IMG/VR virus record: IMGVR_UViG_3300048925_000129 | DNA: 64,000 nucleotides | Direction: 5' to 3' (one strand) | From: a virus | Shown: piece by piece, positions 34,349-58,920 of the stretch | Layout: every line of letters begins with the position of its first letter | How positions within the stretch are numbered: position 1 is the first letter of the stretch | The notes under the pieces: generated by a model | Told to the model about the DNA's origin: nothing | The model's database searches: none | Seen by the model: the letters and a program-made list of their open reading frames with translations, nothing else | Position numbers and translations under genes: made by a program

Positions 34349-34382
34349 TTTTGATAAGTCAAAATTTTTTCTTATATTTGCA
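34349..34382 (+). promoter_or_regulatory. Bacteroidota promoter, near-identical to 45354-45387
   Basis: TTTG-N19-TATATTTG; 33/34 identity with the second copy. Confidence 0.85.
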
Positions 34383-34441: not shown

Positions 34442-36988
34442 ATGGCTAATGCATTTTCAGTTTTTAGAGCAAGACAAGGGTGGATAGACCCTACAGATCA
34501 AGACTTTACATTGAAGGCTCTTATGTTCAAACAACAGAAGTATGATGCCAATCAAGCTAAGGTTCAATCAATTATAGATAAATATCAATCACTACAACTT
34601 GCAAGAGGAGTTGACAGGGATTATTTAAATGGAAAATTGAGAAACCTGGTTGATACGGCTAATGCTTTGGGACCTCAGGATTTATCACAAAATTCTGTAG
34701 TAACCTCCATCACTAACCACATTGGTCAAGTCTTGGATAATAACGTTATGACAGCAGTTCAAGAGACTGCTAAAATTAGAGCTTATCAAGATGAAGTCTC
34801 ACAACTAAAGGAGAAACACCCTGAACTATACAATCCACTAAACGAGGCTTATGGCATGTCCCCAGCACAGCAGTATATGCAAAGTACTGAACTTGGGGCA
34901 AGAATGCAGGGGAGCTTAACATATAGTCCCTATCAAGATGTTGAAGGGGACGTAAATAAATTTTTATCTGATATTCAAAAGAATTCCAGAGATGGAGTTA
35001 CTATGATCCCAGACCCAAATAATCCAGGACAAATGATTCAAGTCACACTTAATGGTAAAAGTGCCAACGAGTTAAGACAGATTGCTATGGGATACTTAGG
35101 AAATAAATTTGACAACCAGTTAAAGATTAACTCATGGGGAAGCACAAATGGATTCAGAGATATTCAAAATTCCCTAGAGCCAACAATTACTGGATACTCT
35201 AATGTGATCAACCAAAGATCAAAGGAATTGGCTAATGTAAAGTCACAACTTACTGGTAATATTACAGCAGCCGAAAGGACTAAACTTCAAGATCAGGTTA
35301 AAGCTTTAGAGAATGATGTTCTGTCTGCCTCTACAATGAGAGATAATATACAAAGAGATCCAGTTGGAGCTTTAGTTTATCTTGAAAAACAAAAGATTGC
35401 AAACAGATCAGGTATGGCACTTGGTATGTTACAAACACAATCTGTAGAATATAAAAAAGACGATTACTACTTCTCTGTTCTTAATGAAGCAAGAGAAAGT
35501 AGAAAGGAAGCTTTCGAGAATCAAAAGTATCAAAATGATCTTTCTATTAAGTCAAGGGAACTGGAGCTTAAAGAAATGGAGATAGGGCTTAAAGCTGCCA
35601 AGGCTGACGGAAGTTCTGATTCCAAAGAAAAGGGAACAGGAGATTTAAATAGTGTAGTGTTTGAGGATGTTAACCCTTCAGAAGCATTACCAGAGCAATT
35701 AGAATCGGCTCATAACTCTTGGAAAGCTGACTTAAGTAACAAGTATCAAGCACAGAATAACTTTGCAAGACAGGTTATGATTGCTGTAGATGATATTGCT
35801 TCAGGTAGAAATAGAAATGTTGATGCTGATCAAAAGCAAGCTGCTGTGGCTGCCATATCACAATTTAAACAAAATGGTGGTAGACTAGATACAGTTAGTG
35901 CTCAACAAGCACAAAACTTTATGAAACTATTATCAAGAGCTGATGCCTTTTCTGCACTTGATTTTTTACCAGTTGATAATGGTAGATTGGTCCAAGTTAA
36001 ACAAACTTATACAGATTTGTTTAATGATTGGAGCCAAGCATCTGCTGGGTATAGAGGAGCTAAGGCTAGGGCTCAACAGGCTGAGGCTAGAGGAATGAAA
36101 AGAGGATTTGCTGAAAATGAGCAATTCATTGAAGAAGCTAAGAAACTTGCTCCAGGAATCTATTCTGATAGACTAGCTAATATAGTAGTGACTAATAAAA
36201 ATAAAGGAAATCTTCAGACTCTTATTTCAATGTCTGATGAAGCTAAAGGATCTGAGGAAGTTCCTATCCTTGAATCTGACTCTGCTTTCAAAATTAAGGA
36301 TCTGAAGAATGGTAAGTATCAAATTACATATTTCTCAAAGTCCAAAGATGCAGATAAGAATAATATTATCACTCCAAATACAGTTACTGTTACACAACAA
36401 AATTTATACAGTGTGATTCCTTCATTAGGATCAGTGAGAAATTCCCCTGACAAAATGACATTGGCTAACATTGGAACAAAACCATTATACTCTCCAACTG
36501 TTAAGTTTATTGATCCAGGATCTAGAAACTATGATGCTTATGTAGATACAGTAAAAAGAATGGCAACTAATCCATTTGATACATCTTATTTAGATGGAGA
36601 GACTGCCAAAAAAACTATAAAACAGCAGTTAGGAATAATTGGTATGAAAAATGCAGAAGAAAGAGACACTATGAATTCTTTAGTAGATACTTTACTATCT
36701 GAAGAAGTTATGGGTAATTTCAAAACATCTGTATATTTTAACCATTCTGCTGCTTCCAGAGATGGAAAGGGATACGTAAGTATCGTTAACAAAAAAGGAG
36801 AAAAAGTTGCCACCCTAAATTTAGGAGAAAGAAGAAGTCTGGATAAAGAAGCCAGTCTTAATGAGTGGGTTCCACAAGTTTCTTATTCTAAAGTTATAGG
36901 AAATGAATTAAGAAAGATTTTAACAAATTATCAGACTACAGGAAAATTGGAACTTACTCCAGAAATACAAAAATTATTAAATGGCTAA
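34442..36988 (+). CDS. internal virion/ejection protein
   Basis: 848 aa, helical, no Cys; KQQKYD.N motif as in crAss-like cargo proteins. Confidence 0.6.
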   Translation: MANAFSVFRARQGWIDPTDQDFTLKALMFKQQKYDANQAKVQSIIDKYQSLQLARGVDRDYLNGKLRNLVDTANALGPQDLSQNSVVTSITNHIGQVLDNNVMTAVQETAKIRAYQDEVSQLKEKHPELYNPLNEAYGMSPAQQYMQSTELGARMQGSLTYSPYQDVEGDVNKFLSDIQKNSRDGVTMIPDPNNPGQMIQVTLNGKSANELRQIAMGYLGNKFDNQLKINSWGSTNGFRDIQNSLEPTITGYSNVINQRSKELANVKSQLTGNITAAERTKLQDQVKALENDVLSASTMRDNIQRDPVGALVYLEKQKIANRSGMALGMLQTQSVEYKKDDYYFSVLNEARESRKEAFENQKYQNDLSIKSRELELKEMEIGLKAAKADGSSDSKEKGTGDLNSVVFEDVNPSEALPEQLESAHNSWKADLSNKYQAQNNFARQVMIAVDDIASGRNRNVDADQKQAAVAAISQFKQNGGRLDTVSAQQAQNFMKLLSRADAFSALDFLPVDNGRLVQVKQTYTDLFNDWSQASAGYRGAKARAQQAEARGMKRGFAENEQFIEEAKKLAPGIYSDRLANIVVTNKNKGNLQTLISMSDEAKGSEEVPILESDSAFKIKDLKNGKYQITYFSKSKDADKNNIITPNTVTVTQQNLYSVIPSLGSVRNSPDKMTLANIGTKPLYSPTVKFIDPGSRNYDAYVDTVKRMATNPFDTSYLDGETAKKTIKQQLGIIGMKNAEERDTMNSLVDTLLSEEVMGNFKTSVYFNHSAASRDGKGYVSIVNKKGEKVATLNLGERRSLDKEASLNEWVPQVSYSKVIGNELRKILTNYQTTGKLELTPEIQKLLNG

Positions 36989-39900
36989 TACACCACAAGA
37001 CCTATATAATGCTTCACCATCAGGATTTGACCCAGTAATGGGAATAACTTCTAATGGAGTGAGTGAGAGTGTTAATTTAGCAAACCAAGTGCTAAGTAAC
37101 CCTGTCTCTTATGACTTTGGGAATGAGTCTTTATCAGCCTCTCTAAAAAGAGTTTCAGAGCTGAAGACTCCCGATTTTAATTCTATATACAAACCTACTT
37201 TAAATGCTGCAAGTTTTTCACTTAATGGTGGAGGAGTTCCTGGGGGTGGGAAGGTTGATCCGTTTGGCTCATACCAAGATAACTCTGAGTCCTGGATTGG
37301 TGACAGAATTAACGTAGATGAGTACTATACTCAGATGGGTGAGGGCTGGGCTAATTTAGATAAAAGTAATGCAGGAGCTATTGGTATTGGTGGAGGTATT
37401 CTTGCAGGTGCAGCTACAGGTGCAGCTGTTGGGTCTCTTGGTGGTCCAATTGGTGCAGCTATTGGAGGTGTAGTTGGAGGAATTTTAGGTGGAATAGAAG
37501 GAAACCAGGTTTCAAAAAACATAGGTTATGGATATGTAAGAAACAAATTTGGTTCTGATCAGGACATGAAGTATGCTCAACAAGGTTTTGGTGGTAGAGC
37601 TGGTGCTGGTTTGATGAATTTAGTTCACTCAGCAGATAGTTTAACTCTAGGAACACTGGGAACGATTGCATATTTACCTCAAGCTATTTCTGAGAGAAGT
37701 TTAAATGTTCTTTTCAACAATGAATTCACTAAATTATTGGATGATTATGATAAGAGTTCACAAAGTTCTAATAGAATTTACCACTCTTCAGAATATGATA
37801 ATTCATCTTTAATAGGAAAACTAGCTCATAGTGAGCTTTGGTTCGAACAAGTTGCTCCTGCTGTAGGTTTTATGGTTGGAGCTATTGGTATTGGTAGAGC
37901 TACAGGACTTGGGTTAGGTGCTGTAGGTTTAGGAGGGGCTACTACAGGAGCTGCTTCCAGAGCATTTTTAGCTGAGACTATAGGTGCTGCTGCTAAAGGA
38001 GAAACCCAAGCATTAGGTAGACAAGCTTTACTAAATGGGTTTAAGAATGCTGCTAGAGCAGAACTTAAAGCACAAACATTTAAATCTATGGCTGGAAACA
38101 TGGTAACCCTATTAACGAGTGCTTCCCCAGAATCAGGATTAGAAGCTAGAGGAGCCATGAATGAAGCCCAGGAAAATTATATCAAAGCTTATAATAATGC
38201 TTTTGGTAGACTACCATCTTCAGAAGAAATTGCTAACTTTGATAAAGCAAACAGAGACTCTGGTAACGGAGTGTTTGCTGCTAACCTTGCTGTTGTAGGA
38301 TTATCTAACTGGTTACAGTTTGGGGATGCAATGGGATTAAATAGGGTTGTTAAAAAAGGACTTTTAGAAGATTCTATCAACAGAGTTTTTGGAATGGGAG
38401 TTAAACAAACTATTGGTGAAGTTTCTGAGAAAGGAATTCAATCAGCCGTTTGGGAAGCTGTACAAAGAACTAAAATACAGAAGTTAGGATATAGAGCTCT
38501 TAAAGCTTTGGAAGCACCAGCTACTGAAGGTCTTTGGGAAGAAGGTATCCAGCACGTAATTTCTGATACACATAAAAGTTATCTAGAATCTAGATTTAAC
38601 CCTCAAGCTACAGAAATCAACAAATCTCTTTTAAATGCTTTTGGAGAATCATTTGTAAATACCTATACAACTGAGGCAGGGTGGAATGACATCATGATTG
38701 GTATGATCGTTGGTGCAGGAGGAACTGTAAGAGCAAGAGGGGGATTTGATGTTTTAAATCAAAGAGCAGTTTCCAGAGAAGTTTCTAACATCAACAGAAA
38801 TGTTCAGAACTTAAATGAAACTCAAAGACAATTTGTTGAAGCTCAGGAAGACTATTTAAACAAGCAAGCCATTTATAACAACCTTGCAAATGTTTCTACA
38901 GCTAGAATGGGAGACAGAATAGGTGCTTTAAACCAGCAAGTTATAAACTCTGATTTAAGTAAGAAGTATGTAGCAAGTGGAAATCTGGAGCAGGCTCAGT
39001 TAGCTTATCAGAATGCAATCTTTGCAAAACTTTCAGCAGAAAGAAGAGCAGGATTATCTGAATCTAATAAGTTCGATATGGATACCATGATTGAGAATAT
39101 TCCAGAGGATGCATTAACCAACTTATACAACTTTAGAAGTCAGGATCAAATCAATGATTTCAAAACACAGACTCAGGATAATCTGAATAACATGGTTGAG
39201 GCTTTTGATGCAGCCTATGACATGGCAGAATCTCTTAATCTTGGATCAAACCAGAGTTATTTCTCCCCTACTCAGATTACTGAGATGGCTGCTTTAAACT
39301 TTTTCCAAGGTATGCACTCAGCCGACAATGCTAACAACCTGGCTCAATCAATTGAGCAGACAGTTGGAATTAATGGTATTGCTGACTCGATGAACTATTA
39401 TGCCAATTTGTCAGGTGTTCAACAGAGAAGAATGTCAGAGCTTGAAGATCTTCAAAAACAATTAGAAGAACTGGAAAGTAGACACAATGAACTATTAAAT
39501 GACTTTTCTACTGAAGTGGTTAAACCACAAAGACAGGGAGAAAATGAAGCAGTTGTTTCAGAACTGGATAGAACCAATAATAAGCTAGCTGCTGTTCAGA
39601 GTGAAATGGATTCTGTTAACAACAGAATTACAACTCTAACCAACATCTTAAATTCAAAGGAATCAATCCCTTCATTACCATTTGGTAATCCAGCAAGTAA
39701 GTTCTTTGATGCAGTTAACCTAAACATAGCTGATAGTGAATCTTCAGATGTTTTGGCTAATCTAAAGAGTTTAGACAGATACATTGAACATCTATTAGAT
39801 ACTACTGAAAAAACAGAAGAAGAGGTTGCAACTGACAGAAATAAAGCTGATATGATTCAGAGTTTAGTTGGAGCTTATAAGACACAGATGGGGCTAATGA

Positions 39901-42900
39901 GAAGTTTTGCTAAGGCTGCTCAAATGGTTGCTGATCCAGCTTACATCAATAACATAGGTAAAGGATTATTCAATAGAAATAAATATGATGCAATCTTTGA
40001 CAACATGGATTGGATCAACAATAATGAATCAGGATTCGATGAACTTTCTAAGGAGGGTCTAAAACAATTAAAGGAAAATCTTGATTCTGGAGTTATTTCA
40101 AAGTATGATTTACACACGTATACTACTAATTTTGAAATACTTAGAATGGGTAAATCTATTCAGGATGATAATACTTTGAATGAAGTTGAGCCCGATGTTA
40201 TTTCTAAAGAAGACCTTCAAGATATTGTAAATCAGGATGAGGAGGGAAATATGACTTTAGATACTTCTTCTCCAACATATCAAAGAATATTCGAAGATAT
40301 TGCTCAAGACCTGGCTGGTGGGAATACCCTTTCACCTAACCAACAATTAGTTTATGATGCTATTCAAACAAACGAGGAAGAACGACAAAAACTCAATGAT
40401 AGAATAGAAGAGATAAGAGCTGAAATTGAAATAACTCCTTCTACCATTGGAGATCCATTAAGAAATTCACAACTTGCTCAAGAACAAAGAATAAACAAAA
40501 TTGCTGAGGATAGAAAGGCTGAGATCAACGAGAGATATGACACTCTTATTAATCAGACAAACTCAGTTGCCGAAGATATTGATGCCCTGGATGATTCCAT
40601 TACTTTAGAGGAAGGATTAGCCCAAATGGAGAGTAAGGTAGGAGAGCTTGAAGCACAAAGACAGGCAGAACTTGATGAGGTTGATAGAATCCTAGAAGAG
40701 ACCAAAAAGCCTACTGAATCAAGAACTATCCAAATTAATACAGAACTTGATAGATTAAACAATTTCATTGAGAGTGTTATTGATGAGTTGAAAAATGCTT
40801 CGAGAGAATTAAATGTCGAAACGGTTGATAACTTTGATTTAAATCCGAAAAAGGTTTCCAAGCTATTTAATGATTATCAAGAACTATTCAGCAAGGAAGA
40901 CAAAACAAATGAAGATGAGGCTAAACTAGCTCAAATGAAAAGCCTTATTAATAAGTATGGATTAGTTGAAGGAAGAGTTTTAGATTATAATGGAACACCT
41001 GTCAGATTATCAGATGTCTTAGAACAGAGAAACTTCCTAGAAAATGAGCACTTCAATACTGAAACTGAATTGAGTCCTCTTACTGATAGTGAGACAACAA
41101 TTGTAACAACAGAAGCACCTACTGATGAGTTTAGCAGAGGAACAAGGGGAGGAGATCCAACTGTACTTAACAATTATGATTTTGCAACCTTCACAGGAGC
41201 AAATCAAAATAATGAAGTATCAATTTCAAACATAACCCCAGCTTTACTAATTGAACAAGTACTAAGAGATAAAGATGCAGCAACTATAGATGTTGATAAC
41301 AACGAAGTAGATTTATCTCAAGCTAATGATCTTATTAATGAAGGACAGGTTGTAAGAGTCACTTTCAACAGTCCTGAAGGAGAAGTAAGAAGAATTTCTT
41401 TTCAACTAGATAAATCCAGAAGAATAATTCTTCCTCAAGGAGATCTTCAAACTATTGAGGAAAATTCTTTATTAAGATTTAACCCAGATAACATCATCGG
41501 GAGTTCAGGATATTATACCTTAACTATGGATGTAAATGGAACTCAGGTCCCAGTGAGATCAGATTATGATCTAGCTCAACTTATTGATAGTAATGCTGCT
41601 CAAAGATTATCTCCAGGAGATGCATTATCTTTTGAAGTCGAATTAAACTCTGAATATAATCAGAGACTTTTAGAGAGAATGAGACCATTCTTATCTTCAG
41701 TTTCAGAAGAAGACAGAGCTAAGTATGAACCTCTTCTAGTAATGGCTACAGAAGCTGTAGATAATACAACTAGGATTAATGTTTTAAAAGCAAACATTCA
41801 ATCTTCACAAACTCTTCTTGATGCACTAAATAAACAAATTGAAGAGGCAAATGATGCAGTAGTACAAGATAGAGCAGCTTATAATAGGGATGTGGTTTAC
41901 CCACTTACTGATAGAGCAACTGTAGAGGATAGAAATATCCAGGAATTTGAGAATGAGATATCTACCTTACAGGCAAGAAATAAGGAAATAAGAATCACCT
42001 TAAATGTAGATTTTAATAAAACTCCTTATGACAAGATTGTAAGAAATCTTGAAAAGAAACTTGGTAAATCAAAACTTTCTGATGCACAACAGAAAGAATA
42101 TGATGCACTAAGAAAAGAGTTCAAGGACAACATGGTTATTGTATCAAAAGATAAAAGTGGCAATATTATTGGAGTTGTAAAAGCTTTCAGTAATTCAAAT
42201 GGAACAAATGCTGTGAATATGGATTACTTAAGAAGTAACATGTTTGATAGGTTTGAACAAAGTGGATACACAAGTGCTAGATCTCCATTCACTATACCTG
42301 TCCAAATTGTTTATATGGGTGTTCCTAATATTTCATCAACAGATACAGGTAAGGTATTATATGAATTCTCTAGGGATTCTTCTGATAATAGTATTAACCC
42401 TAGTAAGATAATGGATATAGGGTATGTTAGTTTCAACGAGTTAACCTTTAATTCAGGGGCTAGATACAATACTCCATACAATTATGCACAGAGTATAATG
42501 AGAGATAAGGGGTATACAGGTAGAAAAGTACCAGTAGTTATCTTTAAACACAATGGAAAAGAGATAATTTACCCTATTTCATTGAAGGAATCTTTAGACA
42601 GTGGAGTTATAGTATCTCAATTTGATGATCTAGCTAACAATAAGAGTAAAGATTTCAGTCAATACATTAATGATATCAATGAATTCTTATCTGATAACAA
42701 GGTCTCACCTAAATATAGACTTACTTCATTGAATTATTCAGATGATTATGTAAGCCAAATTAGAGATATCATAGCTGATTCAGAGTATTATCCATCTGTG
42801 GAAGAGTTTTTAAACTCTAGAAACATGGCACAAACTTTAATTGACAATGCATTGATTGATATTGACCTTAATAACGAACCATTTATTGGTCCAAAAATAA

Positions 42901-43034
42901 AGTATGCACTAAATCAAGTGCCTGAATTTACTTCAGAATTAAGTAATGATAAAGTAATCAGTGATAATTCCCCTATTAAAAATAGTGTGGAGGAAAATAC
43001 TGAAGAAAATGAATGTAATATTGAATTAGACTAA
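36981..43034 (+). CDS. giant ejection protein with glycine-zipper membrane segments
   Basis: 2017 aa; GxxxG-rich hydrophobic stretches, TEG.WEEG.Q motif, coiled coils; single Cys at residue 2012. Confidence 0.7.
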   Translation: MANTPQDLYNASPSGFDPVMGITSNGVSESVNLANQVLSNPVSYDFGNESLSASLKRVSELKTPDFNSIYKPTLNAASFSLNGGGVPGGGKVDPFGSYQDNSESWIGDRINVDEYYTQMGEGWANLDKSNAGAIGIGGGILAGAATGAAVGSLGGPIGAAIGGVVGGILGGIEGNQVSKNIGYGYVRNKFGSDQDMKYAQQGFGGRAGAGLMNLVHSADSLTLGTLGTIAYLPQAISERSLNVLFNNEFTKLLDDYDKSSQSSNRIYHSSEYDNSSLIGKLAHSELWFEQVAPAVGFMVGAIGIGRATGLGLGAVGLGGATTGAASRAFLAETIGAAAKGETQALGRQALLNGFKNAARAELKAQTFKSMAGNMVTLLTSASPESGLEARGAMNEAQENYIKAYNNAFGRLPSSEEIANFDKANRDSGNGVFAANLAVVGLSNWLQFGDAMGLNRVVKKGLLEDSINRVFGMGVKQTIGEVSEKGIQSAVWEAVQRTKIQKLGYRALKALEAPATEGLWEEGIQHVISDTHKSYLESRFNPQATEINKSLLNAFGESFVNTYTTEAGWNDIMIGMIVGAGGTVRARGGFDVLNQRAVSREVSNINRNVQNLNETQRQFVEAQEDYLNKQAIYNNLANVSTARMGDRIGALNQQVINSDLSKKYVASGNLEQAQLAYQNAIFAKLSAERRAGLSESNKFDMDTMIENIPEDALTNLYNFRSQDQINDFKTQTQDNLNNMVEAFDAAYDMAESLNLGSNQSYFSPTQITEMAALNFFQGMHSADNANNLAQSIEQTVGINGIADSMNYYANLSGVQQRRMSELEDLQKQLEELESRHNELLNDFSTEVVKPQRQGENEAVVSELDRTNNKLAAVQSEMDSVNNRITTLTNILNSKESIPSLPFGNPASKFFDAVNLNIADSESSDVLANLKSLDRYIEHLLDTTEKTEEEVATDRNKADMIQSLVGAYKTQMGLMRSFAKAAQMVADPAYINNIGKGLFNRNKYDAIFDNMDWINNNESGFDELSKEGLKQLKENLDSGVISKYDLHTYTTNFEILRMGKSIQDDNTLNEVEPDVISKEDLQDIVNQDEEGNMTLDTSSPTYQRIFEDIAQDLAGGNTLSPNQQLVYDAIQTNEEERQKLNDRIEEIRAEIEITPSTIGDPLRNSQLAQEQRINKIAEDRKAEINERYDTLINQTNSVAEDIDALDDSITLEEGLAQMESKVGELEAQRQAELDEVDRILEETKKPTESRTIQINTELDRLNNFIESVIDELKNASRELNVETVDNFDLNPKKVSKLFNDYQELFSKEDKTNEDEAKLAQMKSLINKYGLVEGRVLDYNGTPVRLSDVLEQRNFLENEHFNTETELSPLTDSETTIVTTEAPTDEFSRGTRGGDPTVLNNYDFATFTGANQNNEVSISNITPALLIEQVLRDKDAATIDVDNNEVDLSQANDLINEGQVVRVTFNSPEGEVRRISFQLDKSRRIILPQGDLQTIEENSLLRFNPDNIIGSSGYYTLTMDVNGTQVPVRSDYDLAQLIDSNAAQRLSPGDALSFEVELNSEYNQRLLERMRPFLSSVSEEDRAKYEPLLVMATEAVDNTTRINVLKANIQSSQTLLDALNKQIEEANDAVVQDRAAYNRDVVYPLTDRATVEDRNIQEFENEISTLQARNKEIRITLNVDFNKTPYDKIVRNLEKKLGKSKLSDAQQKEYDALRKEFKDNMVIVSKDKSGNIIGVVKAFSNSNGTNAVNMDYLRSNMFDRFEQSGYTSARSPFTIPVQIVYMGVPNISSTDTGKVLYEFSRDSSDNSINPSKIMDIGYVSFNELTFNSGARYNTPYNYAQSIMRDKGYTGRKVPVVIFKHNGKEIIYPISLKESLDSGVIVSQFDDLANNKSKDFSQYINDINEFLSDNKVSPKYRLTSLNYSDDYVSQIRDIIADSEYYPSVEEFLNSRNMAQTLIDNALIDIDLNNEPFIGPKIKYALNQVPEFTSELSNDKVISDNSPIKNSVEENTEENECNIELD

Positions 43035-45331
43035 TGAACAAGTGTAGAATTTTTAGAGACTTCGATACAGATAATGTAATCAGAGTATTAAATAACCTGG
43101 GTAATGAGTCCTCTCTGTATAGAGAGGCTTATGCCCACACTAATGATCAGGAGGAGGCTCTTGATATATGGGCTGTTGCCAATACATATAAGTTCCAGGA
43201 GTATACTAAGGATTTAAACCTTGGAGAAAAAGAACCTGCTTTATCAGATGTGTTAAAGTACATCAACAATTTGAATACTACTGAGACATTATCAAGCCAA
43301 GACATAACTGACTTATCAAACAATCTTCAGACTCTAAACATACAGAATGCAGATACTCTATTAGGAAAGCTACAAAGAACATTCTTTACTGGACAAGGTT
43401 TATTCCAAGTTTCGAGAAGTAAGTTAAGAGAATCAGGATTGTACACAGACCCTGAGATCAATAATCTAATGACTTTTCCATCTTTCAGAGCTAATATAAA
43501 AGAGTTTATTAATAGGTTGAGAAATTCTTTGAGAAAAGGTAACTCTCTTCCAAATTTGTTCACAGATAATTCTTCGTATAAAGATTTTGTAGTTCAAGAT
43601 TCAACTCAGACTACAGGAATAGGAAAGTTCAAGAATTATCTTCCAGAAGATGTCAGAGACTATATTCTATCTAATGTCAGAAATTACACTACAGATGCTG
43701 ACTTCAAGACAAGGATTCAAGCTATGGATAACATAGATATCAAGGATTATATATTAGACAATCCACAAGCCTACAACTATGCTAAAGACATAGTGAGGAA
43801 CTCTAAGATTGTACCTGTATTCTCAGAGATGGATGGAATGATTGTTCCTAAACTAAATAATGACTTGGCTCCAGCTCTACTAAATACTTTGAGAGTAGGA
43901 GAGTCTAAGGAGAGTTTTACCAATTCAGTAGATGTTCTTAGAAATATTCCTTTGGATGATTGGTATGGGAATGAAGCTGTAGAGTCCATTCTTAAAAATC
44001 TGGAGCTACAGGCAGCCTTTAATCACATTGATTTATATGGATTAGCCAACTCTTACAACTCAAAGAGTAGAGAAGAGATTTTAGGTATTCTGGATGTTGT
44101 TGATGACTTTTTATTTAAGGCAGAAATGAATGATGTATCCAACACTGATATCTATGACATCAGCAGTGATATAGCCGATTTCTTTGGACAAGATATAACT
44201 CCATCAGAAATGACCATTCCTATCTCTGGAACTGATAAAGGGAGAAACCTTTCTATGATAGATACAGGACTAGGAGAAATAGAAATGTTCCAATCAGGAG
44301 GTTATGTTAAATTTAGAGATAATCTTTATCAGAAGGCAGCAATCTATAATTCATTTGCTGATATGTTAGATGATACCTATACCAGCCTTCAACAGGATAT
44401 CACAATCCTACCAGATCCAATTTTGGAAGAGATGAGACTTAAGACAGATTCAGGGTATAACTTTACCAGACTATTTAATTTGAATAATGAGAATGGAATA
44501 AAAGGAAGTTTAAGCCAAATAGTTTCAAGACAAATGGACCCCAATTTCTCTATAAATAGCAATGCAGATTTTGATTCAGCTAAGCAGTTAACTCTATACA
44601 AAATTCTGTTAAAGATGCCAGAGAACACCATTAGAAACCAAGATATAATGGATTTTATGTCAAGGAAAGCAATTCTGGATATTGATATCGAAAGCCTGGA
44701 CTATTTAACTTCAGACTTCATATCAGATTTCTATACTAAACAATTGCAAGAGAAGATCATGGAATCTCCTTTATTTGATGCAGCTTATAAGTATTTCGAT
44801 ATTACAAACAGGGGATTGACGTTTACCACAACAAACCCACTGATTAAGAATCAAGTACTTACCTTGCTTTCTGAAGAAGGAATCTTCCCTACACTTCAAG
44901 CTTATAGTGCTGTGAGTAAAGATGACTCATTAGCATTCCTGATGCCAGAGCAATTGGATGAAGCTTTGATTGATATTCAGGATAGGAGAGACTATGTGGT
45001 AAATAGCCCAGAAACCCTTCAAAAGTTCACTAAACCATATACTAAGGTAGATACTACTACAGCAATTGTAAAAAATGCCGTAGAAGAGTTTATAAAGCTT
45101 AATGATGGGATTTACGAACTTACTGATGCCAGAGATGGAGTGGGGATTTATTCTCTCTTAAATAGTGTCTCAGATCCAAGTTACTATGTGATGAATACAT
45201 CTAAACCGATGGTGAACACAGAAATAAAAATTGAGACTTATGAGTCAAGCAATACCGATTCAAGTCTTACAAACAAGTCAAAGATAAGTGAAGCAACGAC
45301 TAATAAAATGCTAGAAAACAGAGTATGTTAG
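43034..45331 (+). CDS. internal virion/ejection protein of unknown function
   Basis: 765 aa; only Cys4 and Cys765; N-terminal ~70 aa paralogous to the N-terminus of 45402. Confidence 0.65.
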   Translation: MNKCRIFRDFDTDNVIRVLNNLGNESSLYREAYAHTNDQEEALDIWAVANTYKFQEYTKDLNLGEKEPALSDVLKYINNLNTTETLSSQDITDLSNNLQTLNIQNADTLLGKLQRTFFTGQGLFQVSRSKLRESGLYTDPEINNLMTFPSFRANIKEFINRLRNSLRKGNSLPNLFTDNSSYKDFVVQDSTQTTGIGKFKNYLPEDVRDYILSNVRNYTTDADFKTRIQAMDNIDIKDYILDNPQAYNYAKDIVRNSKIVPVFSEMDGMIVPKLNNDLAPALLNTLRVGESKESFTNSVDVLRNIPLDDWYGNEAVESILKNLELQAAFNHIDLYGLANSYNSKSREEILGILDVVDDFLFKAEMNDVSNTDIYDISSDIADFFGQDITPSEMTIPISGTDKGRNLSMIDTGLGEIEMFQSGGYVKFRDNLYQKAAIYNSFADMLDDTYTSLQQDITILPDPILEEMRLKTDSGYNFTRLFNLNNENGIKGSLSQIVSRQMDPNFSINSNADFDSAKQLTLYKILLKMPENTIRNQDIMDFMSRKAILDIDIESLDYLTSDFISDFYTKQLQEKIMESPLFDAAYKYFDITNRGLTFTTTNPLIKNQVLTLLSEEGIFPTLQAYSAVSKDDSLAFLMPEQLDEALIDIQDRRDYVVNSPETLQKFTKPYTKVDTTTAIVKNAVEEFIKLNDGIYELTDARDGVGIYSLLNSVSDPSYYVMNTSKPMVNTEIKIETYESSNTDSSLTNKSKISEATTNKMLENRVC

Positions 45332-45353
45332 CAGTAACATTTTTTGTTATCTG

Positions 45354-45387
45354 TTTTGATATGTCAAAATTTTTTCTTATATTTGCA
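45354..45387 (+). promoter_or_regulatory. Bacteroidota promoter
   Basis: TTTG-N19-TATATTTG; near-identical to 34349-34382. Confidence 0.85.
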
Positions 45388-45401
45388 TAAAATTATTTTT
45401 A

Positions 45402-48400
45402 ATGAGCTGTACAATAACTATAACTCCTACAGGAATCTTACAAAAAGTTTTAGATTTCAACGGAGTTGAGTCAGAATTATTTAAACAAATTGCCTCTCTT
45501 CCGTATGTAAATAACGTTAGGGAGGCTTTAGATATTTACCTAAAAACTCAAGCAGAAGATTTTCAAACATCAGTAGCTGCTGCTGCTGATAGATACTCTT
45601 CTACAGAACCTGTTCTTAAATTTCAACTTGGTAACGGAGACATTGTAGGAAATTACTATGATGCCTTATCTCAAGGTGCTGGAGAAATTATAACAGCAGG
45701 ATTTGAAGTAAATGGGGACTTGGTTCCATTACATTCTTTTAGTTCTGAACTTTCTCCTGATACACTTGCTGGTAAAGTAAACAACCTTATTTTAAGTGGT
45801 GTTCTTTCTCCATCAAGATCTAAGATAGAAAATGAGTATAGACTACAAGGGAAGGGAGATAACATCACAACTATTAGTTTCAACAATGTGGAGGCTCTTC
45901 AGCAACTAAACCAAGCTGAGGACAGATTCTCTATTGAGAAAAATACATTAAGAGATAAACTTACTGATAATGTTCTAACTGATTATATTCAGGAGGACTA
46001 CACAGTTGTGGACTCAAACGAGTACCCAGTACACAATGAGCAATACGAAACTGTAATTCTGGATAACAATAACCAATTCCAAGTCATCAATAACCTGGAA
46101 CTAGACCAACATATAGACTCTCAAACAGGACCTAACCTATTACTTGATAGAGCCCTTAACAACCTTATTGATAATGAATACGATTCTACCTCTACAGTGG
46201 ATGTCGATAAGATACTTAGTAATACTGATAAGGAGGGTATACAAAAGAGTTTATTAAAAATCCTTAATAACTTAGGGGTAAAAGTAACTTCTTTATCTAA
46301 CTATTTAGCCAATTATAAGCAGAAGAATGGTGTAGATCCATCAGTAGAGGCATTATCTGACCTTACACAAAGAGTAGTAGCCCTAGCAGAAACAGGTAAT
46401 ACCTTAGAAAATCTTTCTGAGGAGGTATCTCACTTCCTAGTGGAGGCATATAATAACCAGGATGAGATCAATTCTGTACTACCATTAGTAGAAAACTCTC
46501 CAGAGTGGGTAGATGAATCTAATTTTTACTTTAATTTATACCAAAATGAAGGTTTAAATGGTGCTGAACTTACAAATAAAGTAAGAAGAGAGGTATTAGG
46601 AAAGATTATTTCCAATTCTATCTTGAATAATCAACAGTCATCTATGTATGACAGAGCTTTGAGATTAGTAAATAACTTCATTAACACCATAAAAAACTAT
46701 TTTTCTCAAGGAACCAAGACAACTTTAAACAATCTAGTCAATAGAATTACTGAAAGTGCTCTTGAAGAAGAGAAATTTGCAAACAATTTTGATGCAGGTA
46801 ATCTAAATAGTAGTAATTTCGACATATTTTATAGTGCAAAACCATCTACTTTAAGTAATAATCTGAATGCTGCTGTTACTTTAATGCAGAAACAACTTGC
46901 TGTATTACAAAAAGAGGGTACAGGTAGAGGTCTTCAGATGAGAATGGATACTCTTAGGAGTCAAATTGAAGCATCTGATACCTTAAAATCAGTATCCACA
47001 TACTTAGACATGGTAGATACTATATACTCAGATGTAAATAGAAAGGTTAAGAAGGCTATGGAACTAGAGAGAAAGGGGCAGAAAGTAAGTCCTATCCTTA
47101 TGGGACCACAGGCAGTATCTGCTGATATCCTTACTACAGAGAACCTTGCTCATCTATCTACATTAAGAGACAACCTGTTAAACTATAATTTCCTGGATGC
47201 AGCCGATAAAAAGACAGCAACCAGTTTGATTGACAAGATCAATTCATACTCTTCCGATATTCAGGCTTTAAGTGGAGAACTGAAAAACTTAACCACACAA
47301 AGAGGAGAAGAAATGGTTGAGCAGCTTATGACAGAATTCAGATTGCCAGAAAAGGTAAGAGATGATTTTCAGATGCAGCTAAATTCAAAGATCCATGATG
47401 TAAACATGCTAATGGCTAACTTTGGAAACATGCAGAATGCCAGCAACCCAATCTTACTTCTTTTAAGTAAGATGATGAATAGAATGTACACAACAGTGAG
47501 AAATAAAGACTTGAAAGTTTTCAATGCTTTATCTCAAAAACTGAAAGACATTGGAATGTATGATAAGTTAGATAGACTGATGCAGAGAGACTCTAATGGA
47601 AAGTTGACTAACTATTTCAGATCAGTTGTAGACTATGCCAAATTTGATGCAGCTTTCGAGCAAGAGAAAGTAAGGTTGTATAATGAGGCTTTAGCTAATG
47701 ATCCAGCAACATCTTCTCTAACACCTGTTACAAGTACTGATCAAATTGGTTCAGATGGGTATCCAAAAGAAATTGACCTTTCTGATGAAGTGAGAAGAAA
47801 TTACAACGAGCAATTCAAACAATGGCTAGAAGATAATACTGAAACTCCTTACAATGGTTCATTCACCAAGTTAAGAGATGATATGTTCAAAGCTATTGAG
47901 AACGGAGTAACTCTTCCAGACGGAACAAAGATTGCAATGGTTATTCCAGATGTTGTTAAACAACAAATGGCTGAGTGGGCTAGAAGAAGAAGAGAGATCA
48001 AGGAGCCATATAATGTGAACGGAATTGTGGATTATTCTCAAATGTCTGAGACTGAGAGACAACAGTTAAACACAATCAAGAAGGAAAGAAAAGAAGCTTC
48101 ATCTTTAATTGATCCACTTACTCAGGAAGAGAAGACAGGAACTGAGCTTGAAATTGCAAGATCATATCAAGCAATGAATGCTTATTATATGAACCAAAGT
48201 AAGGATCAAAACAAGAGAAGTATTTCAGGTAGTTTCTTTGAAGCTTTGAGTAACATGACTGAGGGAAAGCAAGGACCACAGTTGGCTGAGGCTAACAGAA
48301 TGGCTTTTGAATTCTTTAACAAGAACTCAGGACTTGCATTCAATGAGAAATTCTGGGATGCTATTAAAACAAATAACTTGAAAGCTTCTCAAAAAGTTGA

Positions 48401-51400
48401 GAACTATATAGCTTCAAATGATATAGTTGGAGAAGAGGCTGACATTATGATGGCTCAGGCTGCCAGGCTAGAAAAACTTCTTTCCAATAGATCTGCTTTC
48501 TTAAAGCAGTTTAGTAATCCAGCCAACCCTTCAGAGATTGATGTTGAGTCTATGTCTACAGCAATGCTTACGTCATTTAAAGATTTGGAGCAGGATATAG
48601 AATCACTTTATTCTGAGCTAAATAGTAAGATGGAATCTGAGGATGGTCTAACACCAGTTTTAGAAACAGAATCTACAGCTAACGAAGCTTACATTAAAGC
48701 TTTGGCAGAAGCAGTTAAGCTGCAACCTTCTCTTACTGAGATGGAATTTATGATGGGACATATGACAGCTTTGAACAAAAACAAAGTAACATTGTTCAAT
48801 CAGCAGTTTAGAGATTTCAAGAGAACTGGAATCATCCCTATTACTGGAAACTTTAAATATGTAACTACCAGACTATTAGGACTTGATCCTAAGGCAACAA
48901 ACTCTGAGATTCAGAGAGCTATTACTGAGTATGAAGCTAGAGGAGGTGAAGCACTTGATTCAAGATTTGCTAAATCAAAACTTTTAGGTTATTTCAAAAG
49001 GTTTGCACCAAAGGGATTCTCTGAATTCTATGATATGCTTAAAACAGGAGAGATCGTAGATAGTAATGGAAACATTGTTACTTTATCTGCTGTTCTTGAA
49101 GATATAGAGAAAGGAAGAAATGGAGGAACACCTCAATTTACTTTTACCAATAAGGATGGAGTAAATATTAACCTATCTCAATACTTAAGTGTTAATGCAG
49201 AGGTTGAATGGATGGAGGACCAGAATCCATTTACAGATAATCCAAACTATGTGAAAAATTCCCCAGGGAGTCAGTATATGGGAGGATCTAGACAGCCTAA
49301 GTTATCTACTTACAGCAATCAGGATTTCATTAACGAATTTAATGTTGATATGGATGCTTATAAAAGAACAGGTAAAATTTCATCTGCTGGAACTACTACA
49401 GAGAAAGCAAATGAACTTGAGGCTCTTAATTTAATTGTTGAAAGTAAGTTTGAAGCTTTAAAAAATCAAGGATTACAAAATACTGAAAATTCCTTTAAGA
49501 GATTCCAAGTAAGAAAGACTACACTAGAAAAAGCAGCTAAAGTAGCTAAAGGAAACGTAATCACTACAGCCAAGAATGCATTGAGAGATGGTTGGAGTAA
49601 CACAGTAGATAAAATGATGTATGGGGAAACAGTTGATGGAGATATCAACTCAAATGGTAGAGAGCTATCTAATCTTACCGTTCCTGTTTTAAATGTAAGA
49701 AACATTGAGAATCTGGAAGACGTTACTGAAGATGTAATGTATGGGTTAATGACCCACACTCATAATGCTCACCTCTATACCGAGAGACAGAAAGTTCTTG
49801 CTAAATCAAATCAGTTGGAGCAGCTTATGTTAAATAAGCAGAAATTCATAGGAAAAGAGGCTAAGAATTCCAGAGCTTATAAATGGTTCCAGGATTATAG
49901 AAAGGTCAACCTACTGGGTGTAGCTGAACTTAATAAGGTAGAGGTTCCTCTATTTGGGAAGTCAGTGAATTTGACAAACTTTTTAAGATCATTTGACTCT
50001 TACCAAGGTTTGATCAACGTAGGTTTAAACCCTGCCGTATCTATCACATCAGGTACTTCAGCATTTACATTCAGTTTAACTGAAGGAATTCTTGGAGATT
50101 ATATACCTTCAGACTCTTATAAGTGGGGATCTAAAAGATATATGGCAAACCAGCCAGCCTTTATGACTGAAACTGGTAAAGTTGAAAAAACAAGTGAGAT
50201 CTACTTACTTGGAGAAAAGTTTGGTTTATTCAGATTGACTGAGAGATTAAATGGTTCACAATATAATCAGGCTCTAAGAACTTTGTTTAAAGATGGTCTT
50301 CATGGGGCAGCTCACACATTGACAGAACTTATGACCCACCCTTATGCACCTAGTGCTATGTATGGTGTACTTCATGATTTCAGATATGTGACTAATAAAG
50401 ATGGTTCTCACCAGTTGATGAACTTCAGTGATTTCAAAAGATTAAATTCAAAAGAATTCGACACACCGAAAGAGCTGGATGCTGCTTGGAAATCTTTTGA
50501 AGATAACTCAGTTGCTAAAAACGTGAGTACAGAAAATGGAGTGATTTCATATTCTGACAAATTCAAGGGGTTATGGAATGAAATGTATGGAGATGATCAA
50601 AGCAAGATTGACAATGAATTAGAGTACATGGAAAATGAGATCACTTCAGGAACTGAAAACCTGGTTGCTAAGATAGATGCTAAGATGCCAATGTATGACA
50701 AGTCTACAGCTTCTAGAAATGCATTGCTTAGATTTGCTTTAAGACACAGAGAGTGGTTTACTATCAACATGCAAAACAGATGGAAGAGTCAGCATTACAA
50801 CCTAAATACTCACAAGTATGAGGAAGGATCTTATATTTCACTTTCAACGTATCTTAAAGATACATTCAAAGCTTTTGAGTTTAAGAAAGGAGTAAGTAAC
50901 TATAAGGAATTTAAGAATATATATGATCAGCTTGATTCACATCAGCAAAAGAATATACAAAGAGTTCTTGTAGATGCAGCTATTTCAGCTCTTCTAATCA
51001 TGGTTGGTGCTATGGCAATTGCTCCTATTGTGGATGATGAAGAGAATAAAGATAACTGGGCTATTCAGTATGCTGGGTACATGTATTTCAGACTAGCTTC
51101 TGAACAAATGTCAGTAGGTATAACTGGTATCCCACAATCGAAAGATGTTATTGAAGCTCCGTTTGTTGCAGTAAACTCAATGAAGGAGTTAATGAAACCA
51201 TCTAACTACTCTTTTGATGAAGTAGAGAGAGGATCTTATGAAGGTCATAGTAAACTATTTAAACTGATAGCTAAACAAACCTTTGCAAGACACTATTTCG
51301 ACACAATACATGGAGTGACTCAGAAATCAGACTTCTTCAGACTTAATAACGAATGGACCTTGATGGGAATGAGTAAGCAGTCTAAGAAAGAAAAAGATGA

Positions 51401-51470
51401 GCAAGCTAAATACGAAGAAGAGTTAGCCAAAACATTTGGTGGAAGCCCTGATAGAGCAGGGATGAGATAA
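45402..51470 (+). CDS. giant ejection protein with degenerate zincin-like domain
   Basis: 2022 aa, helical; EEVSH...REVLGK; C-terminal YEEGSY and a hydrophobic helix; single Cys at residue 3. Confidence 0.7.
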   Translation: MSCTITITPTGILQKVLDFNGVESELFKQIASLPYVNNVREALDIYLKTQAEDFQTSVAAAADRYSSTEPVLKFQLGNGDIVGNYYDALSQGAGEIITAGFEVNGDLVPLHSFSSELSPDTLAGKVNNLILSGVLSPSRSKIENEYRLQGKGDNITTISFNNVEALQQLNQAEDRFSIEKNTLRDKLTDNVLTDYIQEDYTVVDSNEYPVHNEQYETVILDNNNQFQVINNLELDQHIDSQTGPNLLLDRALNNLIDNEYDSTSTVDVDKILSNTDKEGIQKSLLKILNNLGVKVTSLSNYLANYKQKNGVDPSVEALSDLTQRVVALAETGNTLENLSEEVSHFLVEAYNNQDEINSVLPLVENSPEWVDESNFYFNLYQNEGLNGAELTNKVRREVLGKIISNSILNNQQSSMYDRALRLVNNFINTIKNYFSQGTKTTLNNLVNRITESALEEEKFANNFDAGNLNSSNFDIFYSAKPSTLSNNLNAAVTLMQKQLAVLQKEGTGRGLQMRMDTLRSQIEASDTLKSVSTYLDMVDTIYSDVNRKVKKAMELERKGQKVSPILMGPQAVSADILTTENLAHLSTLRDNLLNYNFLDAADKKTATSLIDKINSYSSDIQALSGELKNLTTQRGEEMVEQLMTEFRLPEKVRDDFQMQLNSKIHDVNMLMANFGNMQNASNPILLLLSKMMNRMYTTVRNKDLKVFNALSQKLKDIGMYDKLDRLMQRDSNGKLTNYFRSVVDYAKFDAAFEQEKVRLYNEALANDPATSSLTPVTSTDQIGSDGYPKEIDLSDEVRRNYNEQFKQWLEDNTETPYNGSFTKLRDDMFKAIENGVTLPDGTKIAMVIPDVVKQQMAEWARRRREIKEPYNVNGIVDYSQMSETERQQLNTIKKERKEASSLIDPLTQEEKTGTELEIARSYQAMNAYYMNQSKDQNKRSISGSFFEALSNMTEGKQGPQLAEANRMAFEFFNKNSGLAFNEKFWDAIKTNNLKASQKVENYIASNDIVGEEADIMMAQAARLEKLLSNRSAFLKQFSNPANPSEIDVESMSTAMLTSFKDLEQDIESLYSELNSKMESEDGLTPVLETESTANEAYIKALAEAVKLQPSLTEMEFMMGHMTALNKNKVTLFNQQFRDFKRTGIIPITGNFKYVTTRLLGLDPKATNSEIQRAITEYEARGGEALDSRFAKSKLLGYFKRFAPKGFSEFYDMLKTGEIVDSNGNIVTLSAVLEDIEKGRNGGTPQFTFTNKDGVNINLSQYLSVNAEVEWMEDQNPFTDNPNYVKNSPGSQYMGGSRQPKLSTYSNQDFINEFNVDMDAYKRTGKISSAGTTTEKANELEALNLIVESKFEALKNQGLQNTENSFKRFQVRKTTLEKAAKVAKGNVITTAKNALRDGWSNTVDKMMYGETVDGDINSNGRELSNLTVPVLNVRNIENLEDVTEDVMYGLMTHTHNAHLYTERQKVLAKSNQLEQLMLNKQKFIGKEAKNSRAYKWFQDYRKVNLLGVAELNKVEVPLFGKSVNLTNFLRSFDSYQGLINVGLNPAVSITSGTSAFTFSLTEGILGDYIPSDSYKWGSKRYMANQPAFMTETGKVEKTSEIYLLGEKFGLFRLTERLNGSQYNQALRTLFKDGLHGAAHTLTELMTHPYAPSAMYGVLHDFRYVTNKDGSHQLMNFSDFKRLNSKEFDTPKELDAAWKSFEDNSVAKNVSTENGVISYSDKFKGLWNEMYGDDQSKIDNELEYMENEITSGTENLVAKIDAKMPMYDKSTASRNALLRFALRHREWFTINMQNRWKSQHYNLNTHKYEEGSYISLSTYLKDTFKAFEFKKGVSNYKEFKNIYDQLDSHQQKNIQRVLVDAAISALLIMVGAMAIAPIVDDEENKDNWAIQYAGYMYFRLASEQMSVGITGIPQSKDVIEAPFVAVNSMKELMKPSNYSFDEVERGSYEGHSKLFKLIAKQTFARHYFDTIHGVTQKSDFFRLNNEWTLMGMSKQSKKEKDEQAKYEEELAKTFGGSPDRAGMR

Positions 51471-58886: not shown

Positions 58887-58920
58887 TGCAAATATAAGAA
58901 AAAAAAATGACACTTGCAAG
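58887..58920 (-). promoter_or_regulatory. Bacteroidota promoter overlapping a terminator-like hairpin (probably leaderless)
   Basis: Minus strand CTTG...TATATTTGCAGT-ATG; cacttg/caagtg stem next to an A run. Confidence 0.7.

Follow-up and report, generated by a model that had tools for sequence, protein, structure and literature searches.

We analysed the cargo genes in a 64,000-nucleotide stretch of viral DNA (IMG/VR virus record IMGVR_UViG_3300048925_000129), hereafter called the window, which belongs to a virus record of 159 kb that is rated as complete. Among annotated phages, the closest relatives are phi17:2 and phi4:1 of Cellulophaga and csAssE-Sib, a crAss-like phage of the epsilon type; a megablast search of the region against phage records gave no match. 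The cargo block consists of six consecutive open reading frames (ORFs) at 28767-51470, which encode 7,485 amino acids (aa). When the block was translated, only four cysteines were found: C2012 of a 2017-aa protein, C4 and C765 of a 765-aa protein, and C3 of a 2022-aa protein. All four sit at protein ends facing the next member of this three-protein chain, and no internal cysteine was present across the 7,485 aa of the six ORFs, which agrees with the near-absence of cysteine in Schitoviridae-type ejection proteins. The cysteine content of the other window ORFs is about 0.4-4.7%, and the 2221-aa tail protein encoded directly upstream of the block has 28 cysteines. By our own arithmetic, the chance that four cysteines all fall within six residues of an end is (72/7485)^4, about 9e-9. 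The coordinates, ORF sizes, and cysteine positions and counts given by an earlier reading of the letters (the sequence-only reading) were all exact on translation. The features of the chain are listed below, where "head" denotes an N-terminal domain of about 70 aa and "tail" the C-terminal end.

36981..43034, plus strand: first link, 2017-aa protein with a tail cysteine only (C2012), like crAss001 gp47 and phi17:2 gp039.
37374..37496, plus strand: hydrophobic segments of the glycine-zipper type in the 2017-aa protein (residues 132-172), a candidate membrane-active region (Kyte-Doolittle windows 132-150 and 154-172).
43014..43016, plus strand: codon for Cys2012, located in the acidic tail sequence ...EENECNIELD (C145 of alignment A3, invariant).
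43034..45331, plus strand: middle link, 765-aa protein with head Cys4 and tail Cys765 only, occupying the virion RNA polymerase slot of classical crassviruses.
43034..43273, plus strand: residues 1-80 of the middle link, its head domain (alignment A2); Cys4 is encoded at 43043-43045.
45326..45328, plus strand: codon for Cys765, the tail cysteine and final residue of the middle link (from translation and homologues).
45402..51470, plus strand: last link, 2022-aa protein with a head cysteine only (C3), like crAss001 gp49 and phi17:2 gp036.
45402..45641, plus strand: head domain of the last link, residues 1-80, Cys3 codon at 45408-45410 (hidden Markov model, HMM, independent E-value 3.9e-14 at residues 1-64).
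50976..51032, plus strand: strongly hydrophobic segment near the C-terminal end of the last link, residues 1859-1877 (Kyte-Doolittle mean 2.41 over 19 residues).

BLASTP matched the 2017-aa protein to phi17:2 gp039 (E 3e-35) and, over about 800 aa, to crAss001 gp47 (E 1.3e-6), which places it in the crAss001 gp47/phi14:2 gp67 family. Each of its 14 homologues (14/14) has exactly one cysteine, 1-5 residues before the C-terminal end. The Pfam model Gly-zipper_Omp also matched this protein, weakly (E 1.4e-4, under the curated cut-off). The 2022-aa protein was matched to phi17:2 gp036 (E 4e-93) and crAss001 gp49 (E 1e-12), and thus belongs to the crAss001 gp49/phi14:2 gp65 family; in tblastn it matched genes named "putative RNA-polymerase subunit" of the crassviruses cr85_1, cr128_1 and IAS virus. 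The 765-aa protein, compared with the phi17:2 and crAss001 proteins by BLASTP, matched only phi17:2 gp038. From these assignments, the three proteins are taken to be the form that the packaged RNA-polymerase-associated cargo block has in this lineage. The phi17:2 orthologues of the chain proteins are annotated as virion structural proteins; crAss001 gp47, gp50 and gp49 were found in virions by mass spectrometry (Bayfield et al.), and so were gp67, gp66 and gp65 of phi14:2, gp66 being the virion RNA polymerase (PDB 6VR4) (Drobysheva et al.). Packaging and ejection of the window's three proteins are predicted from such homology. When PDB was searched by sequence with the five large proteins of the window, and with gp49 of crAss001, no useful match was obtained.

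Subsequently, the positions of the cysteines were compared among 21 loci, which range from the clade of the window to phi17:2, phi14:2, crAss001, p-crAssphage, DAC15 and FpV4. The rule examined was a cysteine in the last 10 residues of the upstream protein and one in the first six residues of the downstream protein, with no head cysteine in the first protein of a chain and no tail cysteine in the last. Both cysteines were present at all 40 junctions (40/40), whereas a head cysteine was found in none of the first proteins (0/21) and a tail cysteine in none of the last (0/21). The frequency of internal cysteine in the chain proteins was 0.041% over 113,776 aa. As the control, unrelated ORFs of the same loci showed a head cysteine in 4.3%, a tail cysteine in 9.4% and 1.35% cysteine overall. 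The neighbouring proteins encoded in the flanking DNA of six related contigs followed the same rule, which persists at identities as low as about 20-25% and extends to cultured phages whose hosts are aerobic and marine or anaerobic and from the gut. Conservation of the terminal cysteines across crAss-like cargo proteins had been named as a check by the sequence-only reading, and the result at these junctions is the one that it expected. The chain proteins of four cultured relatives have the following cysteines.

phi17:2: first protein gp039, only C1957 (the last residue); middle protein gp038, C4 and C516; last protein gp036, C3.
phi14:2: first protein gp67, only C1797 (the last residue); middle protein gp66, the polymerase, only C3 and C2179 of 2180; last protein gp65, C3.
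crAss001: first protein gp47, only C2339; middle protein gp50, C5, C1334 and C2404; last protein gp49, C5.
DAC15: first protein gp078, only C2220; middle protein gp076, C5 ... C2265; last protein gp077, C4.

The cysteine-bearing end peptides of crAss001 are CNS for gp47, CITTNSTIEELAAK for the head of gp50, ICGANTLYEL for its tail and CAIIPQVR for gp49. In the window, the pattern of cysteines follows gene order, as had been claimed; in crAss001 and DAC15 it does not, since the first protein is encoded on the other strand than the middle and last ones. The rule therefore tracks the identity of the proteins rather than strict gene adjacency. Chance, or inheritance of the positions without any function, would draw on the common ancestry of the loci. 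However, the cysteines are kept at about 20% identity while all others have been purged, both codons (TGT and TGC) are used at the terminal positions, the tails are otherwise variable, and the pairs come and go with gene fission and fusion as described below. We consider this explanation very unlikely; the right reading of the comparison appears to be one ancient terminal-cysteine rule kept under strong selection.

The sequence-only reading had also noticed an N-terminal domain of about 70 aa shared by the 765-aa and 2022-aa proteins. This was borne out by alignment A2, in which C4, I6, G23, S26, L28 and A42 are invariant. The HMM located the head at residues 2-86 of the 765-aa protein and 1-64 of the 2022-aa protein, and the head cysteine, at residue 3-6, lies in the motif C-x-[IV]-x-R-[ND]. 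When a profile of the domain was searched against 1.84 billion representatives, 728 clusters were matched. The domain starts at residue 1 in all of the 150 best matches listed out of the 728, as it does in the non-first links, and 146 of the 149 sequences retrieved from these 150 have a cysteine within the first six residues. Two of the three exceptions have it at residue 8-9, probably because their starts were mis-called; the third, P0150, lacks an N-terminal cysteine, and its start looks truncated. Among the 98 retrieved matches of at least 400 aa, 62 have a tail cysteine and 33 have none, and 84 have no internal cysteine. The head was recognised weakly or not at all by the HMM in the middle proteins phi17:2 gp038, crAss001 gp50 and DAC15 gp076. 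A local HMM matched the N-termini of crAss001 gp49, DAC15 gp077, cr6_1 gp37 and cr118_1 as well, and weakly that of phi14:2 gp66. With a broad head HMM of limited sensitivity, no copy was found inside the fused proteins of p-crAssphage, crAss002, cr118_1, cr6_1 and FpV4. P0035 (1748 aa) has a second, internal copy of the head at residues 216-299, which is devoid of the first ~11 profile positions including the cysteine; the only cysteine of this protein is C4.

An AlphaFold2 model of the head of the 765-aa protein (predicted local distance difference test, pLDDT, 83.4) shows a beta-hairpin and helices. Among 48,161 PDB chains, the top match of the modelled head was to residues 2-94 of 6VR4 (Z 4.6, root mean square deviation (rmsd) 3.4, 63 residues aligned); this score is weak, but the matched region coincides exactly with the homologous position. 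As for the tails, the resemblance between those of the 2017-aa and 765-aa proteins, described earlier as loose, was confirmed and is indeed loose: the cysteine lies 0-5 residues from the end, and apart from it and their acidity the tails are variable. The mean charge was +1.2 for heads (first 12 residues), -1.8 for tails (last 15 residues) and -5.9 for the tails of first links, against -1.6 for the N-terminal ends of first links and -0.1 for the C-terminal ends of last links as controls. This pattern fits a meeting of tail and head. Furthermore, the tail and head motifs differ among junctions and are conserved within each junction type, as a system of fixed order would need.

Changes of gene structure provide the strongest evidence that tail and head are paired. 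It has been reported that the three cargo proteins are fused in some phages (Drobysheva et al.). All two-protein systems (FpV4, p-crAssphage, cr118_1, crAss002 and cr6_1) have a single cysteine pair, always formed by the C-terminal end of the upstream protein and the N-terminal end of the downstream protein. FpV4 gp32 is a 4287-aa fusion of the first and middle proteins with only Cys4286, and gp33 begins with MAC; p-crAssphage gp45 ends with ...SCM, and gp44, a fusion of the middle and last proteins, begins with MSC. In contrast to such fusions, longer chains were found at loci L003, L004 and L020, and their added members have both a head and a tail cysteine. The chain of L003 has proteins of 1935, 737 and 1829 aa followed by a next member; that of L004 has 2020, 768, 949 and 1959 aa, and L020 is of the same kind. 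In the window's 2022-aa protein, residues 1-193 correspond to the start of the 949-aa protein of L004 and residues 204-2022 to its 1959-aa protein from residue 145 onwards, which indicates a fission. The new gene boundary in L004 carries a cysteine pair, C949 and C3, without a counterpart in the 2022-aa protein. Two separate proteins of L020 likewise match residues 1-193 and 204-2022. Similarly, a module that is in line in the 2510-aa protein of L005, whose only cysteine is C3, forms the end of a separate protein with a tail cysteine in L003. Five proteins with cysteines at both ends were chosen from the matches of the head profile (P0032, P0077, P0131, P0027 and P0145), and all of them (5/5) were found, as predicted, between an upstream protein with a tail cysteine and a downstream protein with a head cysteine. 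The claim that the tail cysteine of each protein is paired with the head cysteine of the next was thus upheld by the comparison of junctions, two-protein systems, fusions and fissions, and a head-to-tail pairing of the termini is strongly supported at the level of sequence comparison.

An MSC in frame was observed at annotated residues 33-35 of crAss002 gp33 (locus L015, 11151-11250), as at the start of p-crAssphage gp44; the annotated start of gp33 is probably 32 codons too early.

The middle link differs from that of classical crassviruses. It has 765 aa here and 517 aa in phi17:2, compared with the two-barrel polymerase of about 2,200 aa in classical crassviruses, and no homologue of the phi14:2 polymerase gp66 was detected in the 159-kb genome. 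The 765-aa protein gave no sequence match in PDB and only one weak partial match in tblastn. Its best fold match was the phi14:2 polymerase 6VR4, and this match is weak (Foldseek E 9.9e-3; VIA Z 7.8, rmsd 10.3, 376 residues aligned). The only catalytic-type pattern scanned, D-x-D-[GAS]-D, was absent from the seven ORFs between 22102 and 51470; this pattern does not cover phi14:2's own DFDID, and a looser pattern, [DN]-x-D-x-D, gave two uninspected matches in the 765-aa protein, so that the motif scan carries little weight by itself. On these searches together, the middle protein was not recognised as a two-barrel polymerase with the catalytic motif DFDxD. It may be a reduced remnant of the polymerase or an unrelated replacement. 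Its C-terminal residues 657-765 had a pLDDT below 50, and these ~110 residues, as modelled, are in keeping with a flexible tail. All of its 16 homologues (16/16), down to 23% identity, have exactly two cysteines, one at residue 3-4 and the other at most two residues from the end. The terminal-cysteine rule survives where this short protein holds the polymerase slot.

A coupling of the cargo proteins head to tail by way of their paired thiols is in our judgement the probable basis of the rule, though well short of assured; its simplest form would be a disulfide made within the particle. The cargo would comprise the 2017-aa, 765-aa and 2022-aa proteins, equivalent to gp67-gp66-gp65 of phi14:2 and gp47-gp50-gp49 of crAss001. 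Each follower begins with the head domain of about 70 aa with its cysteine at residue 3-6, and each predecessor ends in an acidic, probably disordered tail with its cysteine 0-5 residues from the end. The tail of one protein would meet the head of the next, and a disulfide between their two thiols would link the proteins once the particle is assembled. The separate proteins would thereby become a single linear thread of about 4,800 residues, functionally equivalent to the single polyproteins of some relatives. Since the cysteines are at the extreme ends, a linear thread would result rather than a mere complex; side stubs would have at most five residues, which would suit a largely unfolded chain passing through a narrow tail and the periplasm in fixed order, and reduction in the cytoplasm would separate the parts. 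An interior free of cysteine would preclude wrong pairings and also cross-linking in the periplasm, as proposed for N4-like phages. The disulfide, the docking of tail and head, the order of exit and the reductive release are proposals made from the sequences, and the interpretation given by the sequence-only reading is thus supported in part. The first link might enter a membrane and draw the others after it; this protein has the Gly-zipper hydrophobic region, and the last link has its strongly hydrophobic segment near the C-terminal end. Inter-protein disulfides are present in crAss001 virions, in the tail and gp57 (Bayfield et al.), which suggests that such bonds can exist in these particles. 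Extended to Crassvirales and to phi17:2-like and FpV4-like phages, the proposal would be that the injected proteins form one covalent disulfide thread, whose order is coded in the junctions, to which modules can be added by means of a head and a tail, and which is unhooked by the reducing cytoplasm; this wider form is plausible but offered tentatively.

Several observations weigh against this interpretation. First, the loci are related; hence the 40 of 40 junctions correspond to one ancestral rule with a few independent fusion and fission events, not to 40 independent trials. Second, two fused proteins have a lone cysteine where the head probably lies inside the fusion: C2220 (nCPSYTFKR) in p-crAssphage gp44 (L011, 13694-25906) and C2140 of the annotated protein (sCIATEKIIR) in crAss002 gp33 (L015, 11151-23888). 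No tail cysteine precedes either of them, whereas FpV4 gp32 has no internal cysteine. These lone cysteines hint at a role of the head cysteine beyond pairing. Third, a different cargo protein, located upstream of the chain in p-crAssphage (gp47; L011, 2551-5124) and in crAss002 (gp30; L015, 456-2129), has a lone cysteine 2-8 residues from its C-terminal end, and a head cysteine is absent from the protein that follows it. This cysteine could serve a homo-oligomeric link or another partner. Fourth, synthesis of the proteins takes place in a reducing cytoplasm, and the lumen in which gut phages live is anoxic, so that the bond would have to form inside the particle or after release. Finally, the disulfide itself is a suggestion drawn from sequence comparison.

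The second and third of these points would be expected if the terminal cysteines were independent of one another, that is, if they formed homo-oligomeric disulfides, or if the head were a packaging or targeting signal and the tail had a separate role. However, this would leave unexplained why head cysteines are absent from every first protein and tail cysteines from every last one, why both cysteines were gained simultaneously at a new gene boundary, and why both were lost at the fused junction of FpV4 gp32. We regard independent roles as unlikely. The cysteines kept inside gp44 and gp33 are also compatible with processing sites: in an ancestral polyprotein, the cysteine might have been recognised by a protease or by acyl-shift autoprocessing, with removal of M-x(-x) and exposure of an N-terminal cysteine. 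Cleavage of the fused forms has indeed been suggested, as has the presence of a zincin-like protease domain in the gp65-like protein (Drobysheva et al.). Nevertheless, the tail cysteine, which is as conserved as the head cysteine, has no role in such a scheme, FpV4 gp32 has retained no internal cysteine, and no Hint or intein signature was detected by Pfam in the window proteins. Processing is, in our view, distinctly improbable. Split inteins and trans-splicing were rejected, because the 0-5 residues after the tail cysteine and the 2-5 before the head cysteine are far too short for split-intein halves and no Hint or intein match was obtained; the geometry of the termini also led us to discard lipobox and CaaX-type explanations.

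The tail and the head might also meet without a disulfide, through a bound metal or another thiol-dependent link at a non-covalent interface. Such a link would account for the same co-occurrence of cysteines and would need no oxidising step in the reducing cytoplasm or the anoxic gut. However, each side provides only one cysteine, the invariant positions of the head (C, I, G, S, L and A) include no conserved His, Asp or Glu to complete a metal site, and the tails have nothing constant other than the cysteine and acidity, which makes this option rather unlikely. With regard to the redox chemistry that the disulfide would involve, a search of the phage genome for an Erv1/ALR sulfhydryl oxidase gave no match, although the control genomes gave none either, and no glutaredoxin was found in the phage genome. 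An ORF of 92 aa with a thioredoxin fold was observed outside the window (G000:C1:103863-104108, minus strand; Pfam PF00085, E 5.9e-10), and p-crAssphage encodes thioredoxins as well. Such genes are ordinary for phages, and this one probably serves nucleotide metabolism; it is not evidence either way, and any link to the cargo thiols is speculative.

The window was further compared with known systems. Like the window, the Crassvirales cargo block is located after the tail and muzzle genes, has homologous first and last proteins and the same head domain, follows the same cysteine rule, and encodes proteins thought to be ejected; the window differs in its 765-aa middle protein, which stands in place of the two-barrel polymerase. 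N4-like phages (N4 gp50-52 and DEV gp71-73) also have giant packaged proteins that cross the envelope and are nearly free of cysteine. The authors of the N4 and DEV studies ascribe this suppression to passage through the disulfide-forming periplasm. In these phages, however, cysteine is simply absent and no terminal pairs are reported, and the polymerase is one chain (about 3,500 residues in N4 and 3,398 in DEV), in contrast to the several linked chains here. Polyvalent proteins, which Iyer et al. reportedly described in 2017, are injected by phages and conjugative elements; they are very large and have many effector modules in one chain. Extra or enlarged links in the relatives of the window carry their hallmark domains, namely ART-PolyVal in L003 (12289-17778) and L017 (10001-15520) and LPD23 in a chain link of L021 (1828-6792). 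Polyvalent modules are peptide-bonded, whereas here separate gene products are apparently joined via terminal cysteines. AB toxins, of which diphtheria toxin and the clostridial neurotoxins are examples, are with the polyvalent proteins the closest analogues in mechanism: a disulfide connects their membrane-active part with the cargo, endures outside the cell and is reduced in the cytosol, where the cargo is set free. Papilloma- and polyomaviruses undergo redox-triggered uncoating with disulfides between capsid subunits. Toxins and uncoating viruses are mechanistic analogies without homology; they concern single disulfides between two chains of a precursor or between capsid subunits, not a head-to-tail series of giant proteins with genes of their own that is threaded through a phage tail.

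The cysteine depletion of N4-like ejected proteins, the crassvirus cargo block, its packaging and the structure of gp66 are already known. No description of the terminal-cysteine rule or of disulfides between cargo proteins was found in the literature searched, most subscription journals being outside its scope, and cysteines or disulfides between cargo proteins are not mentioned in the papers on crAss001 (Bayfield et al.) or phi14:2 (Drobysheva et al.). This suggests that the end-to-end tether by terminal cysteines, probably as a disulfide, is undescribed. The rule bears on the way in which crassviruses store a protein cargo of about 0.5-1 MDa, keep it in order and eject it through a narrow tail; the order of ejection was considered "likely to be controlled" by packing and mutual interactions (Bayfield et al.). 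The cysteine rule gives a concrete, testable hypothesis. It would account for the existence of the block as a polyprotein in certain phages and as three or four genes elsewhere, and also for the total purge of internal cysteines. The rule also provides a way to recognise members of the chain, including unknown injected effectors, in metagenomes, and the head domain of about 70 aa is now identified in at least 728 protein clusters. If the tether is real, it would represent a modular, redox-switched delivery of proteins, into which ADP-ribosyltransferase and helicase modules could be inserted by carrying a head and a tail.

Some further observations concern the links of relatives. A DUF3293 domain, counted with the effector or mobile domains, is present in a link of L020 (5654-9538). 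The middle protein of L019 (10001-21085) contains helicase domains and an intein with a homing endonuclease, inside the protein; this intein may account for several internal cysteines of that protein. In csAssE-Sib (L008, 14731-21133), a 281-aa ORF with the head domain (C5) overlaps the start of an 1885-aa structural protein. On account of this overlap, the two probably represent a single gene that a frameshift or a fault of annotation has divided. Between the 281-aa ORF and the 752-aa middle protein of csAssE-Sib there is a stretch of about 8 kb with small genes.

The remaining features of the cargo block, which are not members of the chain, and of its intergenic regions are as follows.

28767..30161, plus strand: 464-aa cysteine-free cargo protein with a C-terminal phage tail lysozyme domain (Pfam PF18013 Phage_lysozyme2, E 6.4e-22), located upstream of the chain and resembling phi17:2 gp042.
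30223..34332, plus strand: 1369-aa cysteine-free virion/cargo protein (phrog_36695, virion structural protein), similar to phi17:2 gp041.
34358..34382, plus strand: promoter-like 25-nucleotide motif, copy upstream of the 848-aa gene (0 chance matches expected).
34442..36988, plus strand: 848-aa cysteine-free virion/cargo protein (phrog_32131), similar to phi17:2 gp040.
45363..45387, plus strand: identical copy of the 25-nucleotide motif, upstream of the gene for the last link (0 chance matches expected).

The orthologues of the 848-aa protein in L001-L006 are cysteine-free too. PHROGs labels the proteins of the block as virion structural except the 464-aa protein, which has tail-type matches, and the 2017-aa protein, whose best family is of unknown function. 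The intergenic 25-nucleotide motif ends in TTATATTTGCA, and a third copy with three mismatches was found at 58887-58911 on the minus strand. To our reading, the motif looks like a promoter of the Bacteroidota type; if it acts as one, the cargo block would be split into at least two transcription units.

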